Shown piece by piece: positions 23,243-50,720 of a stretch of 64,000 nucleotides of DNA. The notes below the pieces were generated by a model. That model made no database searches. It had not been told where the DNA came from and worked only from the letters and a program-made list of their open reading frames with translations. The DNA comes from Candidatus Thorarchaeota archaeon (GTDB lineage: Archaea; Asgardarchaeota; Thorarchaeia; Thorarchaeales; Thorarchaeaceae), in assembly GCA_046758445.1 (NCBI GenBank), contig JBHIAE010000014.1, forward strand, positions 1 to 64,000, given 5' to 3'. Numbering within the stretch: position 1 is the stretch's first letter; the number at the start of each line of letters is the position of its first letter. The position numbers and the translations under genes are program-made.

Positions 23243-24871
23243 ATGTTCGGTGCTAGGTTTACAGTCCCAAGACCCAAGAATGAAACTGTTCTGGGATATC
23301 GGTCTGGCAGCACGGAGAGAAGGGAGCTAAAGGCCAAGCTCAAGGAACTTAAATCTCAAAGATTAGACATCCCTATGATTATCGGGGGCAAAGAAATCCG
23401 AACTGGGAATCTGGGGAAGTCTGTCATGCCACACGACCATCGGCATGTGTTGGCTGACTTTCACATGGCAGGCAAGGACGAAGTCCTCGAGGCAATTGAA
23501 GCCGCTCTCAAAGCAAGAAAGACGTGGGCTAGAACATCTTGGTATGATCGTGCAGCTGTCTTTCTGAAAGCTGCTGAACTAATCGCGGGACCGAATAGGC
23601 TCACCGTCAACGCGGCCGCCATGCTTGACCTGAGCAAGAACGTGTATCAAGCCGAGATAGACGCAGCAAACGAGCTGGTTGATTTCCTTCGTTTCAATGT
23701 CTACTATATGCAGGAAATCTATGGATCCCAGGCTTCCTCCGCTCAGGGCGAATGGAACCGTATTGAATATCGTCCCCTCGAAGGTTTTGTGCTAGCTGTG
23801 AGTCCCTTCAACTTCGTGAGCATCATGGGCAACCTTCCAACAGCTCCGGCAATGATGGGAAATGTGGTGGTTTGGAAGCCGGCATCGACAGCTGTGTATG
23901 CAGCATATCATGTGATGAAAGTGCTGCTTGATGCAGGGATTCCCCCAGGTGTGATCAACTTCGTGCCCGGCTCAGGTGCTGAGGTGGGCAATCCTGCCCT
24001 GAACCACCCGGCCCTTGCAGGCATTCACTTCACAGGAAGCACAGGCACCTTTAGGGCCTTGTGGCGAAGGATAGCCAAGAACATTCACAGATACAAGACG
24101 TATCCCCGGTTAGTCGGGGAAACAGGTGGCAAGGATTTTGTGTTCGCACATCGGTCTGCAGACATTGATGCGTTGGTCACTGCGTTGATTCGTGGTGCCT
24201 ATGAGTATCAGGGCCAGAAATGTTCTGCCGTTTCCCGCGCCTATATCCCGGAGTCCCTGTGGTCTATCCTAAGAGAACGGCTTCTTTCATCTCTCAAGCA
24301 GGTTCGTGTGGGGGATGTGGAAGACTTCACGACCCTTGTCAACGCTATGATTGACAAGCCTGCGTTTGACAGAGTCGTAGAGTACATTGAGTATGCTATG
24401 CACTCTCCAGATGCCGATATCGTTGCGGGTGGTACTTATGATGACGAAGTGGGCTACTTCATCAATCCTACAGTGGTTCTCACCAAGAATCCAAAGTCCA
24501 AGTTGATGGAAGAGGAGATCTTCGGCCCCATCCTGACTGTCTACGTATATCCTGACGACAGATATGAGGAAGCATTGCACCTCTGCGACGAAACATCACC
24601 ATACGCCCTTACAGGGTCCATCTTTGCCACAGAGAGAGATGCAGTCGTGCTTGCCACTGACATATTGGAGCATGCTGCCGGGAACTTCTATATCAATGAC
24701 AAGCCAACTGGTGCAGTGGTCGGCCGCCAGCCCTTTGGCGGAGCGCGCGCATCCGGCACCAATGACAAGGCTGGGAGTAGAATCAACCTCATGCGGTGGG
24801 TGTCACCAAGGACGATAAAGGAGAACTATCTACCACCAAAGCGCTTTGTATATGACTATATGGAAGGGTGA
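23243..24871 (+). CDS. pruA: L-glutamate gamma-semialdehyde (1-pyrroline-5-carboxylate) dehydrogenase
   Basis: AEIDAA.E..DF.RFN, SPFNF, FTGST, GETGGK, EYQGQKCSA, EEIFGP, SGTNDKAG. Confidence 0.93.
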   Translation: MFGARFTVPRPKNETVLGYRSGSTERRELKAKLKELKSQRLDIPMIIGGKEIRTGNLGKSVMPHDHRHVLADFHMAGKDEVLEAIEAALKARKTWARTSWYDRAAVFLKAAELIAGPNRLTVNAAAMLDLSKNVYQAEIDAANELVDFLRFNVYYMQEIYGSQASSAQGEWNRIEYRPLEGFVLAVSPFNFVSIMGNLPTAPAMMGNVVVWKPASTAVYAAYHVMKVLLDAGIPPGVINFVPGSGAEVGNPALNHPALAGIHFTGSTGTFRALWRRIAKNIHRYKTYPRLVGETGGKDFVFAHRSADIDALVTALIRGAYEYQGQKCSAVSRAYIPESLWSILRERLLSSLKQVRVGDVEDFTTLVNAMIDKPAFDRVVEYIEYAMHSPDADIVAGGTYDDEVGYFINPTVVLTKNPKSKLMEEEIFGPILTVYVYPDDRYEEALHLCDETSPYALTGSIFATERDAVVLATDILEHAAGNFYINDKPTGAVVGRQPFGGARASGTNDKAGSRINLMRWVSPRTIKENYLPPKRFVYDYMEG

Positions 24872-24916
24872 TGGTCCAAGTTACTCTTGGGTTATTCTCT
24901 GTAGTCTGTAGCAGAA

Positions 24917-24952
24917 GAGGGTGTTCAACAGGGCCATTAGGGCAAGTCCCAA
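24917..24952 (+). repeat. Degenerate left end of the cassette-spacer repeat (copy 1)
   Basis: gagggtgttcaacagggccattagggcaagtcccaa versus the shared gagggtgctcaacagtg-N5-7-agggcaagtgccaa pattern. Confidence 0.55.
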
Positions 24953-28323: not shown

Positions 28324-28420
28324 AACCTTTGTGGTGGGTTGATCGCATCTCCGAGTGCCGGAACAAGAGTGAGTCGTTGTGCACCGAAACTGATAACAAG
28401 AGTCTACAAAGGGAAAAGTC

Positions 28421-28477
28421 GCTCAACAATAACAGAAGGGCAGACCCCCAATCTCTCTATCACCGCCCCTTCTGCTT
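28421..28477 (+). repeat. Short-form (type B) repeat (copy 2)
   Basis: gctcaacaataacagaagggcagacccccaatctctctatcaccgcc matches the copies at 44449 and 50661. Confidence 0.8.
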
Positions 28478-28597
28478 CAGTCATCACTAATGATGTCTTC
28501 TCCATGATTGAACTGCTGCAGAGATTTCAGCATGAATGGAAAAGGATAGATTCATGATAAGGGCTCATGCTATATCTCAATTCACTGGTGAGTCGAT

Positions 28598-37353: not shown

Positions 37354-37493
37354 ATTCCCTGTCAAAGGCCCGCACCTCTTCCCACTCCGAAGAGCAGGAA
37401 CAAGCTGCTCTACCTCCAAGTAGTAGAATCCTAGGAGGTGATTGATGGATGATGAGGAAATCTCAACTTCTTCCATCCGCAGCTTCCGCTACG
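37354..37493 (+). repeat. Long-form repeat, 3' two-thirds only (copy 3)
   Basis: attccctgtcaaaggcccgcacctc...caagctgc...ctaggaggtgattgatgga...tcttccatccgcagcttccgctacg. Confidence 0.85.
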
Positions 37494-37585
37494 GATACCT
37501 CACAGTCCTGAGAGAGTCAACCTTTGGGAGACATCCTCTTTCCTTCATCTACAAAGGCCCTTGGTTTGACAATAGATTATATGAT

Positions 37586-42424: not shown

Positions 42425-42527
42425 AAAATGACAGGGCGCTCAACAGTATGCGTCAGGGCAAGTGCCAACCTGGCGTTGGGCAACCTGACCGATTGAATCG
42501 CATTCCCTGGTGTTAGCCTTCACCTCT
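42425..42527 (+). repeat. Long-form repeat, 5' part (copy 4)
   Basis: aaaatgacagggcgctcaacagt...cagggcaagtgccaacctggcgttgggcaacctgaccgattg. Confidence 0.88.
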
Positions 42528-43445: not shown

Positions 43446-43669
43446 AAAAGAGAGAGGGTGCTCAACAGTGCGAGCCCGGGCAAGTGCCAACTTGGCGTTG
43501 GGCAACCTGACGATTGCACCGCATTCCCCGTCAAAGGCCCGTACCTCTATTGCAGTCCCAAAAGGACTGCAACCAAGCTGCTTCTACCCCTAAGGATAGA
43601 AAACTTAGGAGGTGATTGATGGAAGACGAGAGTGACTCTCACCCTCTTCCATCCGCAGCTTCTGCTGCG
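43446..43669 (+). repeat. Full-length structured repeat (copy 5)
   Basis: Closely similar to 47838-48058 and 45974-46197; multiple hairpins. Confidence 0.92.
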
Positions 43670-44386: not shown

Positions 44387-44443
44387 ATATAAACTCCATC
44401 ATGAATATGATTCGCTGTAATCAGACGAATAGCCCAATGGAGG

Positions 44444-44508
44444 ATGAGAGGGTGCTCAACAGTGACAGAAGGGCAGATCCCCAATCTCTCTATCACCGCC
44501 GCCTCTAC
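44444..44508 (+). repeat. Short-form (type B) repeat (copy 6)
   Basis: 44449-44508 is identical over 60 bp to 50661-50720. Confidence 0.92.
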
Positions 44509-44537
44509 TTCTCTCTACCCTGGGAAACCAAGAGAAT

Positions 44538-44819
44538 CTAGCCCAGCCAATCATATCCCTTGCTTCGATGGATAATCTCTGTGACTCTAACTTCTTTGTC
44601 AACTACGAAATAGATTGCCCTATAGTCACCAATTCTCATGCGAAACAGAGGAGGTTCCGACGGATATCTAAGCTTCTTGATGTCAGCACCGGATCGACTT
44701 CGAAATGGGTCTTGCTCTAAGCTCAAAAGGGCCTCCTTGACTCGCTTCTTCTGAGCCGGTTTCAAGAGTTCCAGTTGGGAAACTGCAGTTTCTGATAGCA
44801 GGACCCTATGTTTCGTCAA
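44538..44819 (-). CDS. relE: RelE/ParE-family toxin (TA pair 3)
   Basis: DIKKL...FRMRIGDYRAIY...I.HRSKGY. Confidence 0.9.
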   Translation of the reverse strand: MTKHRVLLSETAVSQLELLKPAQKKRVKEALLSLEQDPFRSRSGADIKKLRYPSEPPLFRMRIGDYRAIYFVVDKEVRVTEIIHRSKGYDWLG

Positions 44820-45003
44820 GAGAGATGAACTCCTCTTCAGCTAGGATACGCTTCTGCCTCTCTCCGAACTCCACCTCTTCTGCAATAGTGAGAAGGCGCC
44901 TGACTAGTTCATCATAGGTTTCCCCCTTTCTCCCGAAACGTTTCAAGAGATCTCTCGTTTCTTTAGAAAGTGGAATTGTCGTTGTTTCGCCCATATCTAT
45001 CAT
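44806..45003 (-). CDS. RHH-type antitoxin (TA pair 3)
   Basis: TTIPLSKETRDLLK..G.KGETYDELVRRL...FISLDE; overlaps relE. Confidence 0.85.
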   Translation of the reverse strand: MIDMGETTTIPLSKETRDLLKRFGRKGETYDELVRRLLTIAEEVEFGERQKRILAEEEFISLDET

Positions 45004-45082
45004 ATCTTATAATGTTGATAGTTACTTATAACTTTCACGGTAATGAGAACCAAGAGCCTTTGGTCGTTGCCTGAACATGCGG

Positions 45083-45167
45083 AATGAAAGGGTGCTCAAC
45101 AGTGCCAGCCAGGGCAAGTGCCAACCTGGCGTTGGGCAACCTGACGATTGACCGCGTTCCCCGTCAA
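45083..45167 (+). repeat. Long-form repeat, 5' part (copy 7)
   Basis: aatgaaagggtgctcaacagtgccagccagggcaagtgccaacctggcgttgggcaacctgacgattg...ccccgtcaa. Confidence 0.9.
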
Positions 45168-45174
45168 CAGAATA

Positions 45175-45591
45175 TCATACTAAGGTCACGAGTCCACCAA
45201 AATCTGAATCGAAGGTTGCTAAGTATGTCACATTATTGCCATCGATGTAAGCAAGGATACAACAGTCAGTAAATCTTAGGGGTCTCTCAGGCCATTTCGC
45301 AAATTGCCTCCATTTATCCCATGCAAGATCTAGAGTTCTAGGTGTTATGTATTCAAACCTTATGAATTCGGGAGTATTGCGAATCAGATCATACGCCTTA
45401 CGCACTATGTTCTTCTTTTTCGTGTGCATCCACAAGGTTGTTAGTACTTCATCCAAGACATAGTCAACTGTCAGTCTCATTCCATATTTCGGGTCCTTGA
45501 GCTCAGTGAGAAGTTCTTTCGCTTTGGAATGGTTATTGTCGCGAGTGTTCAGCAACGCAATGATGACATTACTGTCGATAAGCACCGTCAT
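45175..45591 (-). CDS. vapC: VapC PIN-domain toxin (TA pair 4)
   Basis: VLIDSNVIIA...D..H, VLDEV, FTDC, ATFDSDF. Confidence 0.92.
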   Translation of the reverse strand: MTVLIDSNVIIALLNTRDNNHSKAKELLTELKDPKYGMRLTVDYVLDEVLTTLWMHTKKKNIVRKAYDLIRNTPEFIRFEYITPRTLDLAWDKWRQFAKWPERPLRFTDCCILAYIDGNNVTYLATFDSDFGGLVTLV

Positions 45592-45881
45592 GCAGAGTCC
45601 CCGCCGTATACAACCTCATCCACTTTAGACGAGAGGTCCTCACTTCCCTGTCCCAAGTCCTCAGCTAGGGAGAGGATCTTCTTTATAGTGTCATCGTCGA
45701 GAGGGAGCTCCTTTAATCGCACCTCCTTCACTATGAGGTCATAGTTCTCAAGTCCAATCCTGAACACAATCTCCAGTATCTCCTTCTTAGTCAGACGTTT
45801 TCGTGTGTCTAGATACAGACGCGCCTGCAACTCCTCAAGGTCATCCTTAAGGTCAAACTTGACGGTGGACACTGGTAACAC
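45588..45881 (-). CDS. Putative antitoxin (TA pair 4)
   Basis: STVK...LEELQARL...DLSSKVDEVVYG; ATGA overlap with vapC. Confidence 0.8.
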   Translation of the reverse strand: MLPVSTVKFDLKDDLEELQARLYLDTRKRLTKKEILEIVFRIGLENYDLIVKEVRLKELPLDDDTIKKILSLAEDLGQGSEDLSSKVDEVVYGGDSA

Positions 45882-45973
45882 CCAGTAACTCAGTAACCAT
45901 CAACTCATATAAACTTGTAGAATATTCATGGCTCATCTAAATCTCAGATCTGGTGCTGGCTCTGAGTATGAAG

Positions 45974-46197
45974 AATGAGAAGGGTGCTCAGCAGCGTGGG
46001 TCAGAGCAAGGCCAACTTGGCGTTGGGCAACCTGACGGCTGCACAGCGTTCCCCGCCGTCGAAGGCCCGTACCTCCCTTGTATCCCCGAGCGGACGCAAA
46101 GCAAGCTGCTTCTACCTCTAAGAGATAGATATCCTAGGAAGTGATTGATGGAAGACGAGATGACTCTCATCCTCTTCCATCCGCAGCTTCCGCTGTG
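45974..46197 (+). repeat. Full-length structured repeat (copy 8)
   Basis: Same block order as copy 5, with compensatory stem changes. Confidence 0.92.
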
Positions 46198-46291
46198 GTG
46201 ATCAATCAGAGTATTCAGCATACCTTCAATGATTTTATATATGATTCAGGTCCATATTATCTTGTCAGGTATATTACGTTTTATCAGGTGA

Positions 46292-46552
46292 ATGCCAATG
46301 AGTCTGATTATAGAGGGACAAATCGGAAAGAAGCACACGATATACCTTCCAAAGGCTGTTGTTGATGAGGCAAGTCTCGAGGAGGGAATGAGGATCCAAA
46401 TCACTGTAGAGGGTAATAGAATCATCATTGAGCCTATTCCAGACCCTATCGCTCTTGCAATACACGGAAAGAAGTTTGCAGAAATGACACTAGAAGATAT
46501 CGAGGTCATCAGTAGTGAAGAACAGGCAAGGCACACAGAAGATTCTTCTTGA
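46292..46552 (+). CDS. AbrB/MazE/SpoVT-family antitoxin (TA pair 5)
   Basis: IGKKHTIYLPKAV....LEEG..I...VEGNRIIIEP. Confidence 0.88.
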   Translation: MPMSLIIEGQIGKKHTIYLPKAVVDEASLEEGMRIQITVEGNRIIIEPIPDPIALAIHGKKFAEMTLEDIEVISSEEQARHTEDSS

Positions 46553-46967
46553 TACTTCATTTCTTCTACCTACCCTCGGAATAGAGGTAGAAAGGGAGGT
46601 AGTACAGACAATCTCAAGGATTGATCAAGAACAGACTCAGCTGTTCTACTCAGAGTGGAGTTTCCTTGAGAGCAGTTGGGTGGCAATACGACTGCTAAGA
46701 CAGAAGAAGTTTGAAGAGCCAGTCTATCGAAGAGGACTTCTGAGTATAACCAAGACCCATGTCTACGACACTATCACGATGGACCCACACGATTACCTGA
46801 CTGCACTTACGTTTTTCCAGAAAGGGCACTCAGATATGATTGACAATCTATTGTATGCAGCCGCTCTCAGGGAGGGGTGCAAATTCCTCACCATTGATGA
46901 GGAGTTCTCACGCTTCATTTCCAAGAACGATCTTGAGAATGCTATTTTGACTCCCAAGGACATCTAA
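46515..46967 (+). CDS. vapC: VapC PIN-domain toxin (TA pair 5)
   Basis: ILLDTSFLLP, SFLES, HSDMIDNLLYAAA, FLTID. Confidence 0.9.
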   Translation: MKNRQGTQKILLDTSFLLPTLGIEVEREVVQTISRIDQEQTQLFYSEWSFLESSWVAIRLLRQKKFEEPVYRRGLLSITKTHVYDTITMDPHDYLTALTFFQKGHSDMIDNLLYAAALREGCKFLTIDEEFSRFISKNDLENAILTPKDI

Positions 46968-47012
46968 ACAACTGAAGTATATTCTCACACCTGGGAAGAC
47001 TGGTATTCATTA

Positions 47013-47164
47013 AAAATGAAAGGGTGCCCAACAATGTGAGCAGGGCAAGTGCCAACTTGGCGTTGGGCAATCCGACCGATTGCACCGCGCTCCCCATCCT
47101 AAGCCTGCACCTCTCTCTGCCCGAAGGCAGAGCAAGCTGTCTTCATCACTTGAGATGGTGGAAA
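47013..47164 (+). repeat. Long-form repeat, 3'-truncated and diverged (copy 9)
   Basis: aaatgaaagggtgcccaacaatgtgagcagggcaagtgccaacttggcgttgggcaa...ctctgcc-cgaa-ggcagag-caagctg. Confidence 0.88.
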
Positions 47165-47194
47165 GTATGATAGTCTGAATCGGTTTTCGAGCTT

Positions 47195-47470
47195 TCACAA
47201 AAGACTCAAGAATTCCTCTTTGGATAGTCCACTCTGCTTGATGATAGAGAGGAGAGTTCCTCTTGGAATTGGATTTCTATGGGGAATGATTACAAGATGA
47301 GGTCGACCATTTGCATCGTAGATGACAAGAGCCGTGTGACTTCCTTTCCCTTTCACGGGAGCATACTGGAAACCAGCCTTGAGTAGCTTCCGAGTGAGTT
47401 TCTTACTACCAATCAGAGGTAGTCGGTCCACAATGCTCGACCTCTCGACAAGACTAGAGAGTCTAGACAT
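47195..47470 (-). CDS. hicA: HicA toxin (TA pair 6)
   Basis: L.KAGF....KGSH...VIIPH..IPRGTL.SIIKQSG. Confidence 0.9.
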   Translation of the reverse strand: MSRLSSLVERSSIVDRLPLIGSKKLTRKLLKAGFQYAPVKGKGSHTALVIYDANGRPHLVIIPHRNPIPRGTLLSIIKQSGLSKEEFLSLL

Positions 47471-47699
47471 TGATCTCGATTGTGCGGGTAGATTTCTCAG
47501 GGGTGGTTATGATAGGGAGATAATCGTCAATAATCCCAAGTTCACGTGCATTAACAAGCCATAGTTCTATCGCCTCTGTGAGGTTAGAGAGAGCCTCTTC
47601 AAAGGTGTCACCTGCTGAAGCCACATCAATCTCAGGGCTTTTTGAAACATATGTTCCATCTTCTTCCCAAATTACGGCAGTGAATCTTACTTTCATCAT
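47463..47699 (-). CDS. hicB: HicB antitoxin (TA pair 6)
   Basis: EEDGTYVS..PE....GDTFEEAL.NL.EAIELWL. Confidence 0.9.
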   Translation of the reverse strand: MMKVRFTAVIWEEDGTYVSKSPEIDVASAGDTFEEALSNLTEAIELWLVNARELGIIDDYLPIITTPEKSTRTIEINV

Positions 47700-47837
47700 T
47701 GACTACAACCATCCAGAGTTCTTGAATTAAACTATTTCATTGATGAGATCATAACGCTAAACTCTCAAGTATTAACCATGAGGACCCAATATTAACCAAT
47801 ATGGTAGGCAGATCCACTCATTCATGGATTGTTCTGC

Positions 47838-48058
47838 AAAATGAGAGGGTGCTCAACAATGTGAGCAGGGCAAGTGCCAACTTGGCGTTGGGCAACCTGA
47901 CCGATTGCACCGCATTCCCCGTCAAAGGCCTGTACCTCTATTGCAGTCCCGAAGAACTGCGATACAAGCTGCTTCTACCCCTAAGGATAGAAAACTTAGG
48001 AGGTGATTGATGGAAGACGAGGAAACCTCATCCTCTTCCATCCGCAGCTTCCACTACG
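47838..48058 (+). repeat. Full-length structured repeat (copy 10), overlapping the copA 3' end
   Basis: Closely similar to copy 5; its last about 30 nt encode the end of CopA on the minus strand. Confidence 0.92.
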
Positions 48059-50280
48059 AACACCTTGTCTTTCTCAGTTCTGACGTAAGAGTTTGCCAAG
48101 ACAGCTGAAACACTTCCGGCCATCGCGATCATTGCCCACACTGGATGGAGCAATCCAGTCATGGCTAGAGGTACACCAATTCCATTGAACACAAACGCAA
48201 GTAGCACATTCTGCAACGTCTTCGAGTAACTAGACCTGCAGACATTATATGCATCAATCACACCCCTTAAGCGATCACTCACAATCACAATGTCAGCAGA
48301 CTCAATCGCGATGTCACTTCCGGCACCAATTGCAATTCCAATGTCCGACTGCATCAATGCGGGAGCGTCATTTATGCCATCTCCAACCATAGCAACTCTC
48401 TGGTCCTGGGCCTGAATCTTTCTAATCATGGCTGATTTCTCTTGAGGTAGGACTCCTGCATGGACCTCTGAAATACTCAATTCCTCTGCTATTGCACTAG
48501 CAGTGAGCTTATTGTCTCCCGTAACCAAGACCGGCTCAATACCTTCTGCCTTTAATTCTAGAACCACATCCTTTGCATCCTCTTTGAGCAGGTCTCCAAT
48601 TGCTATCATTCCAGCCAATATTCCGTTGACACTTACAGCTACCACGGTCAGACCTTCCCTCTGCATTTGCTCTAGTTTCTTGGGGAACTCGCCCTCTCTC
48701 GCTCCATCCTCCTTTAGAAACTCTGGACTGCCTACGAGTATGATTGCATCCCTCACGCGGCCACGAACACCCTTTCCTAGGTGAGCGCGAAAATCATCGA
48801 CAGTTTCTATTTGTACAACATCTTGCAGAGCCCGTTCTATCACCGCACGAGCCAATGGATGCTCGGAATTGATCTCTAAACTGGCTGCGAATGAGAGGAC
48901 TTCTGAATTACTGAAGCCATTAATGGCCACAATGTCAATGACGCTGGGTCTTCCCATCGTGAGTGTACCAGTCTTGTCGAAAACAACCCTTCGAACATCC
49001 TTGAATGTCTGAAAGGCCTCTCCTGACCGAATTAGCACTCCTCTTTGCGCGGCGATTCCACTCCCTCGAATCAAAGCCAGAGGCGTCGCCATCCCTATAG
49101 CGCATGGATAACCCATCACTAGAACAGCTAGTGCTGCAAAGACTCCTACTTCGAGATTTGACTCACCAAGGAGCAACCATGCACCAAAGATCCAAAACGC
49201 AAATGCGACAATTGCAGCCAGCAGCACCCCTCGAACGAAGTACTTCAGTATACGATCCACTAGCATGACAATATCAGGCTTTAGAGCCCTTGCTTCTCTG
49301 ATGTGTGCTGCAATCTGCTGAAGAAATGATTCTTCCCCCACTCTTGTCACTTCAATAATGAGGAATCCTCTCTGGTTAAGAGAGCCCCCGATGACCTCAT
49401 CCCCTCTTTCTTTTGGGACAGGAATCGGTTCACCTGTGACAAGGCTTTCATCTACGGCTGAAGCGCCTCTTCTTACGATTCCATCAACAGGGATGCTCTC
49501 ACCCGGTAACACCTTGACTAGATCACCCTGTTTCACATTCTCAACAGGAATCTCGGTTTCACTCTCGCCAGGTCCGATGAGCCTTGCGGTTGCAGGTTGG
49601 AGGTCCATGAGCTTCTTGATTGCCTGAGATGAACGAGTACGAACAAGAAGAGATACATAGCCAGAGAGGACATGATATGAGGTCACAAATACAGACACTG
49701 CAAAGAAGTCCATAACAGGCCATGGTTGAATAATGATGCCAATGATGCCCCCTAGAATCCCGCCAAAGGCAGCAAACTCTAAGAGCACATGCTGGTTTAG
49801 TATCCCTCTTCGAAGAGATGCTCCTGCCAATCGTTTTATGTGCAGCCCTGGACCAAACATTGTCAGGACTGCCAGAGAGAACATAATACTGAATCCAAAT
49901 GGAATAGAATAACCAGTCCACATCAGTAACATCATGGTGGCTGCTAATAGTGTCAGAATACCAGCAGCAATCAGCCACTTCTTTTCTAGAATAAGCTCTT
50001 CCTCATCTTCTTCAAGGCTGCGTACCTTGTCAGGGTCACGGATGGTGAACCCAATGCTTCGCAGAGTATCCTTGATGGCCGTGGGTGTCTGGTGCCCGGG
50101 ATCATACTCTATAAGTGCCTCCTCATGACTCAAACTCACGGCTACATCACAGACTCCCTCCATTCTCGAAAGTGCCTGTCTTACACTTTCTGTGCAGAAC
50201 GAACACTGAAGCCCCCCAATCTTGACCAACAACTTGTCGCGAACAAGTTGTGCATTGGACTCTTCTACCAATATCACCAT
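48028..50280 (-). CDS. copA: Heavy-metal P1B-type ATPase (CopA-like)
   Basis: N-terminal GLQCSFC, TGEP, GYPCAIG, DKTGT, SEHP, TGDN, GDGINDAP. Confidence 0.88.
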   Translation of the reverse strand: MVILVEESNAQLVRDKLLVKIGGLQCSFCTESVRQALSRMEGVCDVAVSLSHEEALIEYDPGHQTPTAIKDTLRSIGFTIRDPDKVRSLEEDEEELILEKKWLIAAGILTLLAATMMLLMWTGYSIPFGFSIMFSLAVLTMFGPGLHIKRLAGASLRRGILNQHVLLEFAAFGGILGGIIGIIIQPWPVMDFFAVSVFVTSYHVLSGYVSLLVRTRSSQAIKKLMDLQPATARLIGPGESETEIPVENVKQGDLVKVLPGESIPVDGIVRRGASAVDESLVTGEPIPVPKERGDEVIGGSLNQRGFLIIEVTRVGEESFLQQIAAHIREARALKPDIVMLVDRILKYFVRGVLLAAIVAFAFWIFGAWLLLGESNLEVGVFAALAVLVMGYPCAIGMATPLALIRGSGIAAQRGVLIRSGEAFQTFKDVRRVVFDKTGTLTMGRPSVIDIVAINGFSNSEVLSFAASLEINSEHPLARAVIERALQDVVQIETVDDFRAHLGKGVRGRVRDAIILVGSPEFLKEDGAREGEFPKKLEQMQREGLTVVAVSVNGILAGMIAIGDLLKEDAKDVVLELKAEGIEPVLVTGDNKLTASAIAEELSISEVHAGVLPQEKSAMIRKIQAQDQRVAMVGDGINDAPALMQSDIGIAIGAGSDIAIESADIVIVSDRLRGVIDAYNVCRSSYSKTLQNVLLAFVFNGIGVPLAMTGLLHPVWAMIAMAGSVSAVLANSYVRTEKDKVFVVEAADGRG

Positions 50281-50304
50281 TCCGCCTCTGTTCTTCCCGA
50301 TTCC

Positions 50305-50541
50305 TCAGCCCGAAGAAACAGGTGACGCAGGAAATCCAATCTTCTTTAGCACCTCTATGATTCTTTCAAGAACAATCTGATCTGAATCATAACTCACAAC
50401 TACTTCCTGAGTTGACTGACTTGTTTCTACAGCTAAGACTCCGGAGAGGATGTTCAATACATTCTTGATTCTCTTCTCGCAACTTGTACAATGAATTGCA
50501 TTTTGCTGAACAATGAGCTTGGTTCGGTGGATGTCTGTCAT
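50305..50541 (-). CDS. copZ: HMA-domain metal chaperone (CopZ-like)
   Basis: IHCTSCEKRI...L..V; start taken at MTDI (50541). Confidence 0.8.
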   Translation of the reverse strand: MTDIHRTKLIVQQNAIHCTSCEKRIKNVLNILSGVLAVETSQSTQEVVVSYDSDQIVLERIIEVLKKIGFPASPVSSG

Positions 50542-50653
50542 TGCATGAGCGTTTCCTAATATGTAATACCTAATCTCAAGGCAGATATATCCAACAAATA
50601 TCATTCATCGAAAAAAGAGCTATGGAAATCGGCATTGGGAATCAATTCAATAG

Positions 50654-50720
50654 AAATGAAAGGGTGCTCAACAGTGACAGAAGGGCAGATCCCCAATCTC
50701 TCTATCACCGCCGCCTCTAC
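50654..50720 (+). repeat. Short-form (type B) repeat (copy 11)
   Basis: 60-bp identity with 44449-44508. Confidence 0.92.

Follow-up and report, generated by a model that had tools for sequence, protein, structure and literature searches.

Cassette-bounding repeats in a Thorarchaeota genome share the tip of the 16S rRNA 3' trailer, where exchange junctions cluster

The two repeat types of the window (the whole 64,000-nucleotide stretch of Candidatus Thorarchaeota DNA analysed here) are almost certainly both spare copies of the 3' end of the 16S rRNA transcription unit, lying co-oriented on the minus strand, and the left end that they share is the distal ~26 bases of the 16S rRNA 3' trailer, seen as its reverse complement on the plus strand. 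This end block is the sole constant element across all cassette boundaries and very probably constitutes the boundary itself; it is not an integron site, and sequence comparison maps the exchange of modules to these trailer-tip bases. The combination of one fixed and one variable end is the appearance expected of gene-tail copies anchored at their 3' side.

The 16S gene occupies C2:122207 to about 123859, with the native trailer copy directly 3' of it (C2:123860-124028), and the repeats align across positions -74 to +170 around the 16S 3' end. When cofolded, a segment of the 16S leader, GCTCAACAGTG, paired with the block, and compensatory changes accompanied the pairing across genera: leader CAAC with trailer GTTG in some, as against leader CAGC with trailer GCTG in others, and, in genus g12, a leader G paired with a C inserted in the trailer. 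The block almost certainly consists of the 3' strand of this basal leader-trailer (processing) helix plus a T-rich tract that resembles a terminator; no canonical bulge-helix-bulge motif was recognisable in the predicted helix. Native trailers were readable in 16 genomes from nine genera; in all 16 the trailer lay directly 3' of the mature 16S end, and in the nine genera it carried the same terminal block 80-145 nt past 16S. Among congeners the native trailer type varied while the leader stayed constant. Type B stands directly after 16S in G066, and a type B probe also matched directly after 16S in G022, G023, G024, G076, G077 and G078, four of these six short native trailers having been read in sequence.

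On the plus strand of the window, the conserved end block reads AAAATGAAAGGGTGCTCA[A/G]CA[A/G]TG, and in the sense of 16S CAYTGYTGAGCACCC-TTTCATTTT(GCA); it measures about 24-26 nt, and in most genus copies its centre is a 9-bp palindrome, TGCTCAGCA. A search of the window with AATGARAGGGTGCTCAACARTG at up to three mismatches returned seven matches, all on the plus strand, against none in 100 shuffles. Position-weight scanning found nine block copies in the window and ~20 in the genome, those of the array being in a single orientation throughout; across the genome 19 copies retained the block and one tail copy lacked it, and copies at the far end of the array had degenerate blocks. The copies discussed below, with one example of a cassette body, are as follows.

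24914..24950, minus strand: most degenerate copy, at the array end, adjoining a conserved 542-aa flank gene
28410..28478, minus strand: degenerate type B copy towards the array's far (old) end (PWM score 20.9 bits)
37354..37500, minus strand: sole tail copy without the end block, spanning -68 to +87 of the 16S end and trailer
42427..42527, minus strand: type A short copy (16S alignment)
43449..43669, minus strand: type A long copy, with block, trailer and 61 nt of the 16S end (16S alignment)
44443..44525, minus strand: type B copy, with block and short-trailer form, truncated in the 16S-proximal hairpin
44526..45082, minus strand: example cassette body, with two small genes (relBE-like layout), promoter region and pre-block spacer
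45083..45167, minus strand: type A short copy, with block and distal trailer part only (16S alignment)
45975..46194, minus strand: type A long copy, block reading GCTCAGC (16S alignment, block scan)
47015..47164, minus strand: type A copy truncated near the 16S 3' end, at +5 (16S alignment)
47840..48071, minus strand: longest type A copy (aligned to the native 16S end and trailer)
50655..50720, minus strand: type B copy

Type A corresponds to this genome's long native trailer, extended by as much as 74 nt into the 16S end, and type B to the short trailer that is the native form beside the 16S gene of G066. The first-pass annotation had described both types as sharing a core that runs from the block through a short variable spacer to AGGGCA, beyond which they diverge, and sequence comparison bore this out; its type B copies were likewise recovered (at 28410/28421, 44443 and 50655, the last two identical over 60 nt), as was the long form's fixed left end with variable right ends (about 42527, 45167 and 47164, to which the comparison added 43669, 46194 and 48071). 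Its statement that only the left end is shared held inside the window but not in relatives, where complete type B copies also have the 16S-proximal hairpin and the 16S 3' end in common with type A. Across the genus there were at least three tail classes as well as copies of the block and nothing else (~24 nt; about 7-10 of 69). Sorted roughly by motif, 69 genus copies fell into 40 B, 10 A, 7 C and 12 other, a few being visibly misassigned, such as this genome's native long trailer, which scored as C.

The longest type A copy comprises the block (47840-47865), the ~168-nt 16S trailer in full and the last 74 nt of 16S, where it has a ~30-nt hairpin insert at 48010-48041; it aligned to native 16S from -74 to about +170, local alignment extending to +186. 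Its right end encodes the final codons and stop of copA, and a counterpart in G070 is 98% identical. The type B copy at 44443..44525 accompanies the relBE-like cassette (44538-45003), whose orthologue in G069 and G063 has the same tail junction; the unit at 44526..45082 occurs in both of these genomes in other contexts. At the array end, the gene for the 542-aa protein (23243-24871) is syntenic with 16S in G029.

Each cassette runs from block to tail to cargo genes to the next block, and its tail is truncated on the 16S side, or within 16S itself, at a point of its own. Cassettes measure just 0.6-1 kb, carry promoters and genes on both strands, and are strictly co-oriented in every array examined; the cargo in this genome (G000) consists of toxin-antitoxin pairs, mercury and copper resistance genes and TnpB. 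In relatives, the surroundings of orthologous cassettes differed. G029, G078, G076 and G023 have arrays of 4-12 copies after 16S, each with its own genome's block variant, and spare 16S trailers, either after 16S or between accessory-gene cassettes, were found in at least 10 genomes from four genera of this Asgard family. The TnpB cassette is immediately beside 16S in G070, whereas in G000 two further cassettes lie between 16S and the TnpB cassette, and the former 16S end is truncated at -32.

Between orthologous cassettes, homology broke within -4 to +20 of the block in every case, so junctions cluster in the block, although this clustering is partly a matter of ascertainment, because informative junctions, by construction, joined unlike tails. 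In the 12 left-junction pairs, identity was at chance (mean about 0.25) as far as -5; in the six right-junction pairs it was 0.72-1.00 up to the block and dropped after +20 in four. The clearest cases came from G000 compared with G070. Breakpoints resolve to this ~24-nt window, inside which GCTCA[A/G]C lies, and in the sequence logo no more than 2-3 nt ever separate the end of the T tract from the start of unrelated cargo. The expectation that breakpoints would cluster in the shared core was thus supported for exchange between genomes, and the scatter of breakpoints outside the core that had been named as counter-evidence was not seen.

The explanation that we favour, with confidence that is about evenly balanced, is that homology-driven repair, together with gene conversion, enlarges and reshuffles arrays at the 3' end of 16S. 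Each incoming unit would replace that end and displace the old end downstream, as WHO elements do at FBA1 in yeast, and array copies would then convert each other. The trailer alleles would have no sequence but the block in common, and the block would be the final homology before unique cargo; it is most likely there that gene conversion or 3'-end replacement resolves. Exchanges between unlike tails would therefore resolve inside the block, giving the fixed end, and the variable end would mark the point at which each former 16S end was cut or joined. A left end recognised by a protein, as first proposed, is unneeded if conversion tracts end in the only common block. In agreement with homology-driven exchange, tails in four genomes were 87-95% identical within a genome as against 63-83% between orthologous tails, and tails were mosaic or swapped between orthologous cargo in cassettes K7, K13, K14 and K11. 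The change of native trailer type beside a constant leader, the two additional cassettes next to 16S in G000 and the failure to find IntI, Y1 transposase, serine recombinase or reverse transcriptase point the same way.

The breaks may be made by the array-encoded TnpB, a putative nuclease whose gene (L018:14675-16441) lies within the array. Three short stretches just downstream of the gene match insert-free 16S over 12-14 nt; in the resident 16S, hairpin inserts break up at least two of these three sites, and the longest tail begins exactly at one of the sites. Hairpin inserts at the 16S 3' end, the guide-like stretches beside TnpB and the array could possibly form one arms-race picture. Between G000 and G070 the 16S-side trailer was about 75% identical, compared with 93-95% for the TnpB cassette; it was therefore not co-inherited with that cassette, contrary to what a pure WHO-type unit predicts. 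Homology alone leaves the precise placement of new cargo at the T tract unexplained. Block-only copies of ~24 nt are short for homologous recombination, and the keeping of the block in 19 copies, with its loss from one tail copy, also runs against a homology-driven mechanism.

The main rival is a true attachment site: a site-specific recombinase or nuclease would recognise the ~26-nt block at the trailer end, a conserved essential sequence serving as safe harbour, and would excise and insert cassettes there, making the block a functional analogue of attC/attI without IntI. We regard this as rather unlikely, at roughly one-half the weight of homology-driven exchange. The confinement of every mapped breakpoint to -4..+20, the start of unrelated cassettes' cargo so near the T tract, the existence of block-only copies, the lack of the block from only one of 20 copies, the palindromic centre and the strict co-orientation of cassettes all speak for it. 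Against it, no candidate enzyme was found in or beside the arrays; the genome's only two tyrosine recombinases are on contigs C34 and C52, away from the array, neither a serine recombinase nor a Y1 transposase was found in the genome, and an HNH cassette was present in just four of 17 genus genomes. The degenerate far-end copies argue that spare blocks are not strongly maintained, and helix formation in the native pre-rRNA is reason enough for the block to be conserved. That the trailer tip is a dedicated site of integrase-independent cassette exchange, widespread in this Asgard family, is a shade more doubtful still; if true, it would be an archaeal functional counterpart of the integron, with an essential rRNA-processing element as landing pad and an enzyme not yet recognised. 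Classical tandem accretion, by integrase-bearing elements that entered the 3' end of 16S through a crossover at the variable end, each bringing a replacement copy up to the functional end of the gene and later decaying to cargo, would account for an anatomy like that of tRNA/tmRNA islands and tycheposons, with direct repeats of a 3' end, fixed 3' limits and variable 5' limits. It is nevertheless improbable: none of the arrays examined held an integrase, cassettes of 0.6-1 kb are small, tail starts are scattered rather than falling into a few classes, and the 16S-side copy, expected to be element-borne, was not co-inherited in K2, K10 and K13.

The first-pass annotation had also offered one-ended rolling-circle or reverse-transcribed insertion, integron chemistry and a MITE. 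Rolling-circle transposition, or 5'-truncated retrocopying of the pre-rRNA 3' end, would suit a fixed end at a T-rich tract, conceivably a transcript 3' end, together with variable 5' extents; it is very improbable, since neither Y1/HUH transposase (PF01797) nor reverse transcriptase (PF00078) was matched in the 92.7% complete assembly, cassettes hold promoters and genes on both strands, and poly-A or ori/ter-like ends are absent. A genuine attC array (CALIN) or a MITE family is the least credible of all. The GCTCAAC...GTTGGGC of this genome's type A does fit RYYYAAC/GTTRRRY, in a co-oriented array rich in toxin-antitoxin pairs, but the predominant form of the motif among 71 genus copies is GCTCAGC; only 25 fit RYYYAAC, and the AAC/GTT triplet is broken in the other 46. 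Types B and C have no R' (GTTRRRY) partner box, single-stranded DNA folds of types A and B on both strands, the proposed GCTCAAC/GTTGGGC pairing and type B hairpin among them, were no better than shuffles (z -1.5 to +1.1), and no match to IntI (TIGR02249) was found at E<=0.001 in this assembly. With the sequence belonging to the 16S transcription unit, attC identity of the block was rejected. As for a MITE, alignments showed neither terminal inverted repeats nor target duplications, and the repeats always bound cassettes, never forming simple insertions between otherwise neighbouring genes.

Together these data define the anatomy of an undescribed gene-capture locus and locate its exchange point, one invariant element and the mapped window coinciding in the final ~26 bases of an rRNA transcription unit. 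The attC-like letters are an accident of the rRNA processing helix, a tempting misreading now corrected, which may bear on surveys that report integrase-less integron sites in Asgard genomes. The choice between a site-specific enzyme and homology-driven 3'-end replacement triggered by an RNA-guided nuclease becomes experimentally addressable.

Tandem accretion at the 3' ends of tRNA/tmRNA genes includes cargo-only satellites, CIMEs among them. The trailer resembles the archaeal pre-16S processing stem, a leader-trailer helix (PMC7038931, PMC10351888), in that the block is the 3' strand of the basal helix, shows compensatory changes and follows 16S by 80-145 nt. It differs in having ~20 copies per genome, the extra ones bounding accessory-gene cassettes, in the lack of a locatable bulge-helix-bulge in the predicted helix and in the presence of both long and short trailer alleles in one genus. 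Sedentary chromosomal integrons and CALINs, reported also in Asgard archaea (Ghaly et al. 2022, PMC9668308), have in common with these arrays co-oriented, repeat-bounded single-gene cassettes rich in toxin-antitoxin pairs, a cassette order shuffled between relatives and a position downstream of a very strong promoter; here, however, there is no IntI, the repeat is rRNA-derived rather than an attC fold, and the consensus triplet is unconserved. Tycheposons accrete in tandem at tRNA/tmRNA gene 3' ends and include cargo-only satellites (bioRxiv 10.1101/2020.12.28.424599); direct repeats made of target-gene 3' ends and additive arrays with cargo-only units are shared, whereas here no integrase was found near the arrays, the target is an rRNA trailer, units are single genes or gene pairs, and breakpoints lie at the distal end of the repeat. 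WHO homing elements at the FBA1 locus of Torulaspora and Lachancea yeasts (Coughlan et al. 2020, PMC7282813) likewise place co-oriented pieces made solely of a conserved host gene's 3' end between genes inserted behind the full-length gene, with the newest units closest to it, the host 3' end replaced and chimeric evolution as the outcome; in both systems the array encodes a nuclease that seems directed at the host gene, whose resident allele would be protected by its differences. In our arrays, by contrast, the host gene is an rRNA with putative protection through hairpin inserts, a nuclease is missing from most cassettes, which have toxin-antitoxin pairs, mer genes or copA instead, the fragments begin at scattered points, the TnpB cassette is inherited separately from the upstream 3' end, and cleavage by TnpB is putative.

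The motif given in the first-pass annotation matched seven times in the window (at most three mismatches), on the + strand only, and never in 100 shuffles. Its claim that two repeat forms have a common left end was borne out by motif search, repeat finding and alignment; the left block (~26 nt) is common to the long form and type B, and their right-hand ends are unlike. The copy forms, checked by repeat finding and alignment, were as follows, the type B copies at 44443 and 50655 being identical over 60 nt.

Repeat copies in the window
42427, 43449, 45083, 45975, 47015, 47840; motif on the + strand; long form (type A), up to about 230 nt
28410, 44443, 50655; motif on the + strand; type B, short form

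Rfam at gathering thresholds gave no match anywhere in the window, and the repeat is not a described RNA family. The single 16S gene of the assembly was placed by Rfam on another contig of the source genome (C2:122207-123794), with the true mature end (...ATCACCTCCT) read from the sequence at C2:123859. All long copies align, on the opposite strand, to this 16S end, from at most 74 nt inside the 16S to about +170 after it, so that the 'fixed left end' of the repeat is the distal tip of the 16S trailer. The 16S and 23S of the source genome are both archaeal; the 23S gene lies at another locus and is not flanked by the motif. Read in the 16S sense the block is CAYTGYTGAGCACCC-TTTCATTTT(GCA), and in a leader-trailer cofold the leader segment GCTCAACAGTG is predicted to pair with it, forming the base of a long helix. 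Leaders and trailers were also extracted from other genomes in the family, 16 of which, in 9 genera, had a readable native trailer; the same block ends every such trailer, 80-145 nt past the 16S, and its complement lies in the leader. Leader and trailer covary (CAAC with GTTG versus CAGC with GCTG), and in the genus g12 a leader G accompanies an inserted trailer C.

Two other identities were discarded: a solo IscB/TnpB ωRNA or transposon end, the Shine-Dalgarno-like AGGAGGTGAT being the reverse complement of the 16S 3' end, and a mini-ORF from an ATG inside the repeat, for which there was no conserved frame. Upstream of the 16S leader, a stretch of ~90 nt that includes GATGATG and CTGATG (L018:1920-2010, in the locus numbering on C2) is nearly identical between the source genome and its congener G066, and might represent a promoter element or a small RNA.

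In G066, whose leader is nearly the same as that of the source genome, type B lies directly after the 16S; a type B probe also matched directly after the 16S in the relatives G022, G023, G024, G076, G077 and G078, four of these trailers reading as short natives, and the genera g2 and g12 have short native trailers too. Complete type B copies in relatives continue into the 16S-proximal hairpin and the 16S end. Together with the native type B trailer, these complete copies indicate that types A and B are alleles of one unit with both ends common and a different middle; the type B copies within the window happen to be truncated. A third tail class of the genus, class C, is similar to the short trailer found in g12. 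Among 69 block-bearing copies from nine genus genomes, a rough motif-based sort, in which a few copies are visibly misassigned, yielded 40 tails of type B, 10 of type A, 7 of class C and 12 others; about 7-10 of the 69 keep little beyond the block.

When the whole assembly was scanned with a position-weight matrix, the contig of the window (C14) gave 13 block copies, each on the + strand, as well as a degenerate one at 24919 and a partial one at its end; C2 gave four, each on the - strand, and C1 gave one. The remaining matches were threshold-level chance hits only. The assembly breaks at the repeat: both C14 (67999-68012, beyond the window) and C2 (138031-138072) end in or beside a trailer block. 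The two contigs probably belong to a single array that would extend without interruption over about 57 kb, from C14:24919 to the 16S gene on C2. The gene flanking its far end (23243-24871; 542-aa protein) lies 23.6 kb downstream of the 16S in the relative G029, in the same relative orientation. Co-oriented trailer copies follow the 16S in G029 (12 in 14 kb), G078, G076 and G023, the block variant being each genome's own. Cargo between the copies includes vapBC-type PIN pairs, a relBE-like pair, an HNH gene and copA; C2 adds a mer operon and a large TnpB-bearing cassette.

Several copies have features of their own. For copA (ORF 48028-50280, minus strand), the final ~14 codons and the stop are supplied by the portion of the repeat that corresponds to the 16S end (48028-48071). 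At 37354-37500 lies the one copy of the 16S end and proximal trailer without a distal block; a membrane-protein gene on the + strand adjoins it, implying that the block was removed there by deletion or insertion. The solitary copy on C1 (134584-134628), block intact and far from the 16S, sits in a ~5-kb stretch for which genus relatives have no equivalent, and may represent either a transposed unit or a second landing site. When this copy was used for an empty-site comparison, the 5 kb around it proved to be a variable island for which the genus offers no clean empty allele. Logan contigs from four DNA runs were broken at every repeat and revealed no cassette gain or loss, the joints listed being other repeat copies or a relative.

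Cassette bodies are common to genus genomes and their neighbours differ. Junctions were compared in ungapped, block-anchored profiles, position 0 being the first A of AATGAAAGGG. Where the orthologous cassette lies right of the block (12 pairs), identity stays at chance (mean about 0.25) up to -5; where it lies left (6 pairs), identity is 0.72-1.00 right up to the block and drops after +20 in 4 of the 6, the other two being uninformative as their next tails are of the same type. These profiles place the breakpoints within about 24 nt of the block, and so they do cluster at the common core, as had been proposed. The clearest junctions are those between the source genome and the congener G070 (93-98% identity) and those of the relBE cassette in three genomes. 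The spacer before the block goes with the left-hand cassette; the tail after it usually travels with the right-hand cargo, the junction being cassette-specific. The promoter region of the relBE-like cassette (45003-45045), which includes TATA-like and palindromic elements, is almost invariant in three genomes; over the ~40 nt that follow in the direction of the block, the sequences cannot be aligned.

The integron chemistry suggested by the first-pass annotation was not upheld. IntI was not found in the 92.7% complete assembly, RYYYAAC fits only 25 of 71 block copies, types B and C have no R' box, and ssDNA folds of the repeat were no better than those of shuffles. The array is not an integron. 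Archaeal genomes are reported to hold 539 attC sites versus only six IntI genes, with enrichment in Asgard (Ghaly et al., PMC9668308).

Homology-driven exchange is what four other observations point to. Paralogous tails are 87-95% alike within a genome, versus 63-83% for orthologous tails (source genome, G066, G058, G064); some tails are mosaic or swapped between orthologous cargo; congeners with a common leader differ in native trailer type; and the TnpB cassette adjoins the 16S in G070, where the source genome has two more cassettes, its former 16S end now lying further downstream, truncated at -32 within a hairpin insert. The block would be the final stretch of homology that all trailer alleles have in common, so that conversion tracts between unlike tails would have to end in it. 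A dedicated site-specific activity at the block is a less likely rival, kept in play by three observations that homology leaves unexplained: in unrelated cassettes the cargo begins no more than 2-3 nt from the T tract, block-only copies exist, and copies with the block outnumber those without by 19 to 1. As to enzymes, searches of the 92.7% complete assembly turned up no Y1 transposase, no serine recombinase and no reverse transcriptase; its two tyrosine recombinases are both on contigs other than the array's, and the HNH cassette, which only 4 of the 17 genus genomes possess, was rejected as the array nuclease.

The 16S 3' domain itself carries two hairpin inserts of about 30 nt in the source genome (L018:3760-3789 and L018:3820-3850), both absent from the G066 16S; the first is different in G070, and versions of the second occur in spare tails (window 43619-43652 and 48010-48041), their inner stems covarying (GAGG/CCTC versus GAGAG/CTCTC).

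TnpB gene of the array
L018:14675-16441, on C2; TnpB ORF

Just after this ORF (L018:16480-16615; C2:136479-136614), three stretches of 12-14 nt, candidate guides judging by sequence, match insert-free 16S at about 1327, 1473 and 1509 of 1520, each preceded by GTCGG(A/G). The second and third span the resident insert sites, and one of the match sites is also the exact start of the longest spare tail.

Full-text literature searches returned no description of rRNA-trailer cassette arrays. The same anatomy is known from WHO elements, where it is explained by repeated replacement of the 3' end of a host gene (Coughlan et al., PMC7282813).
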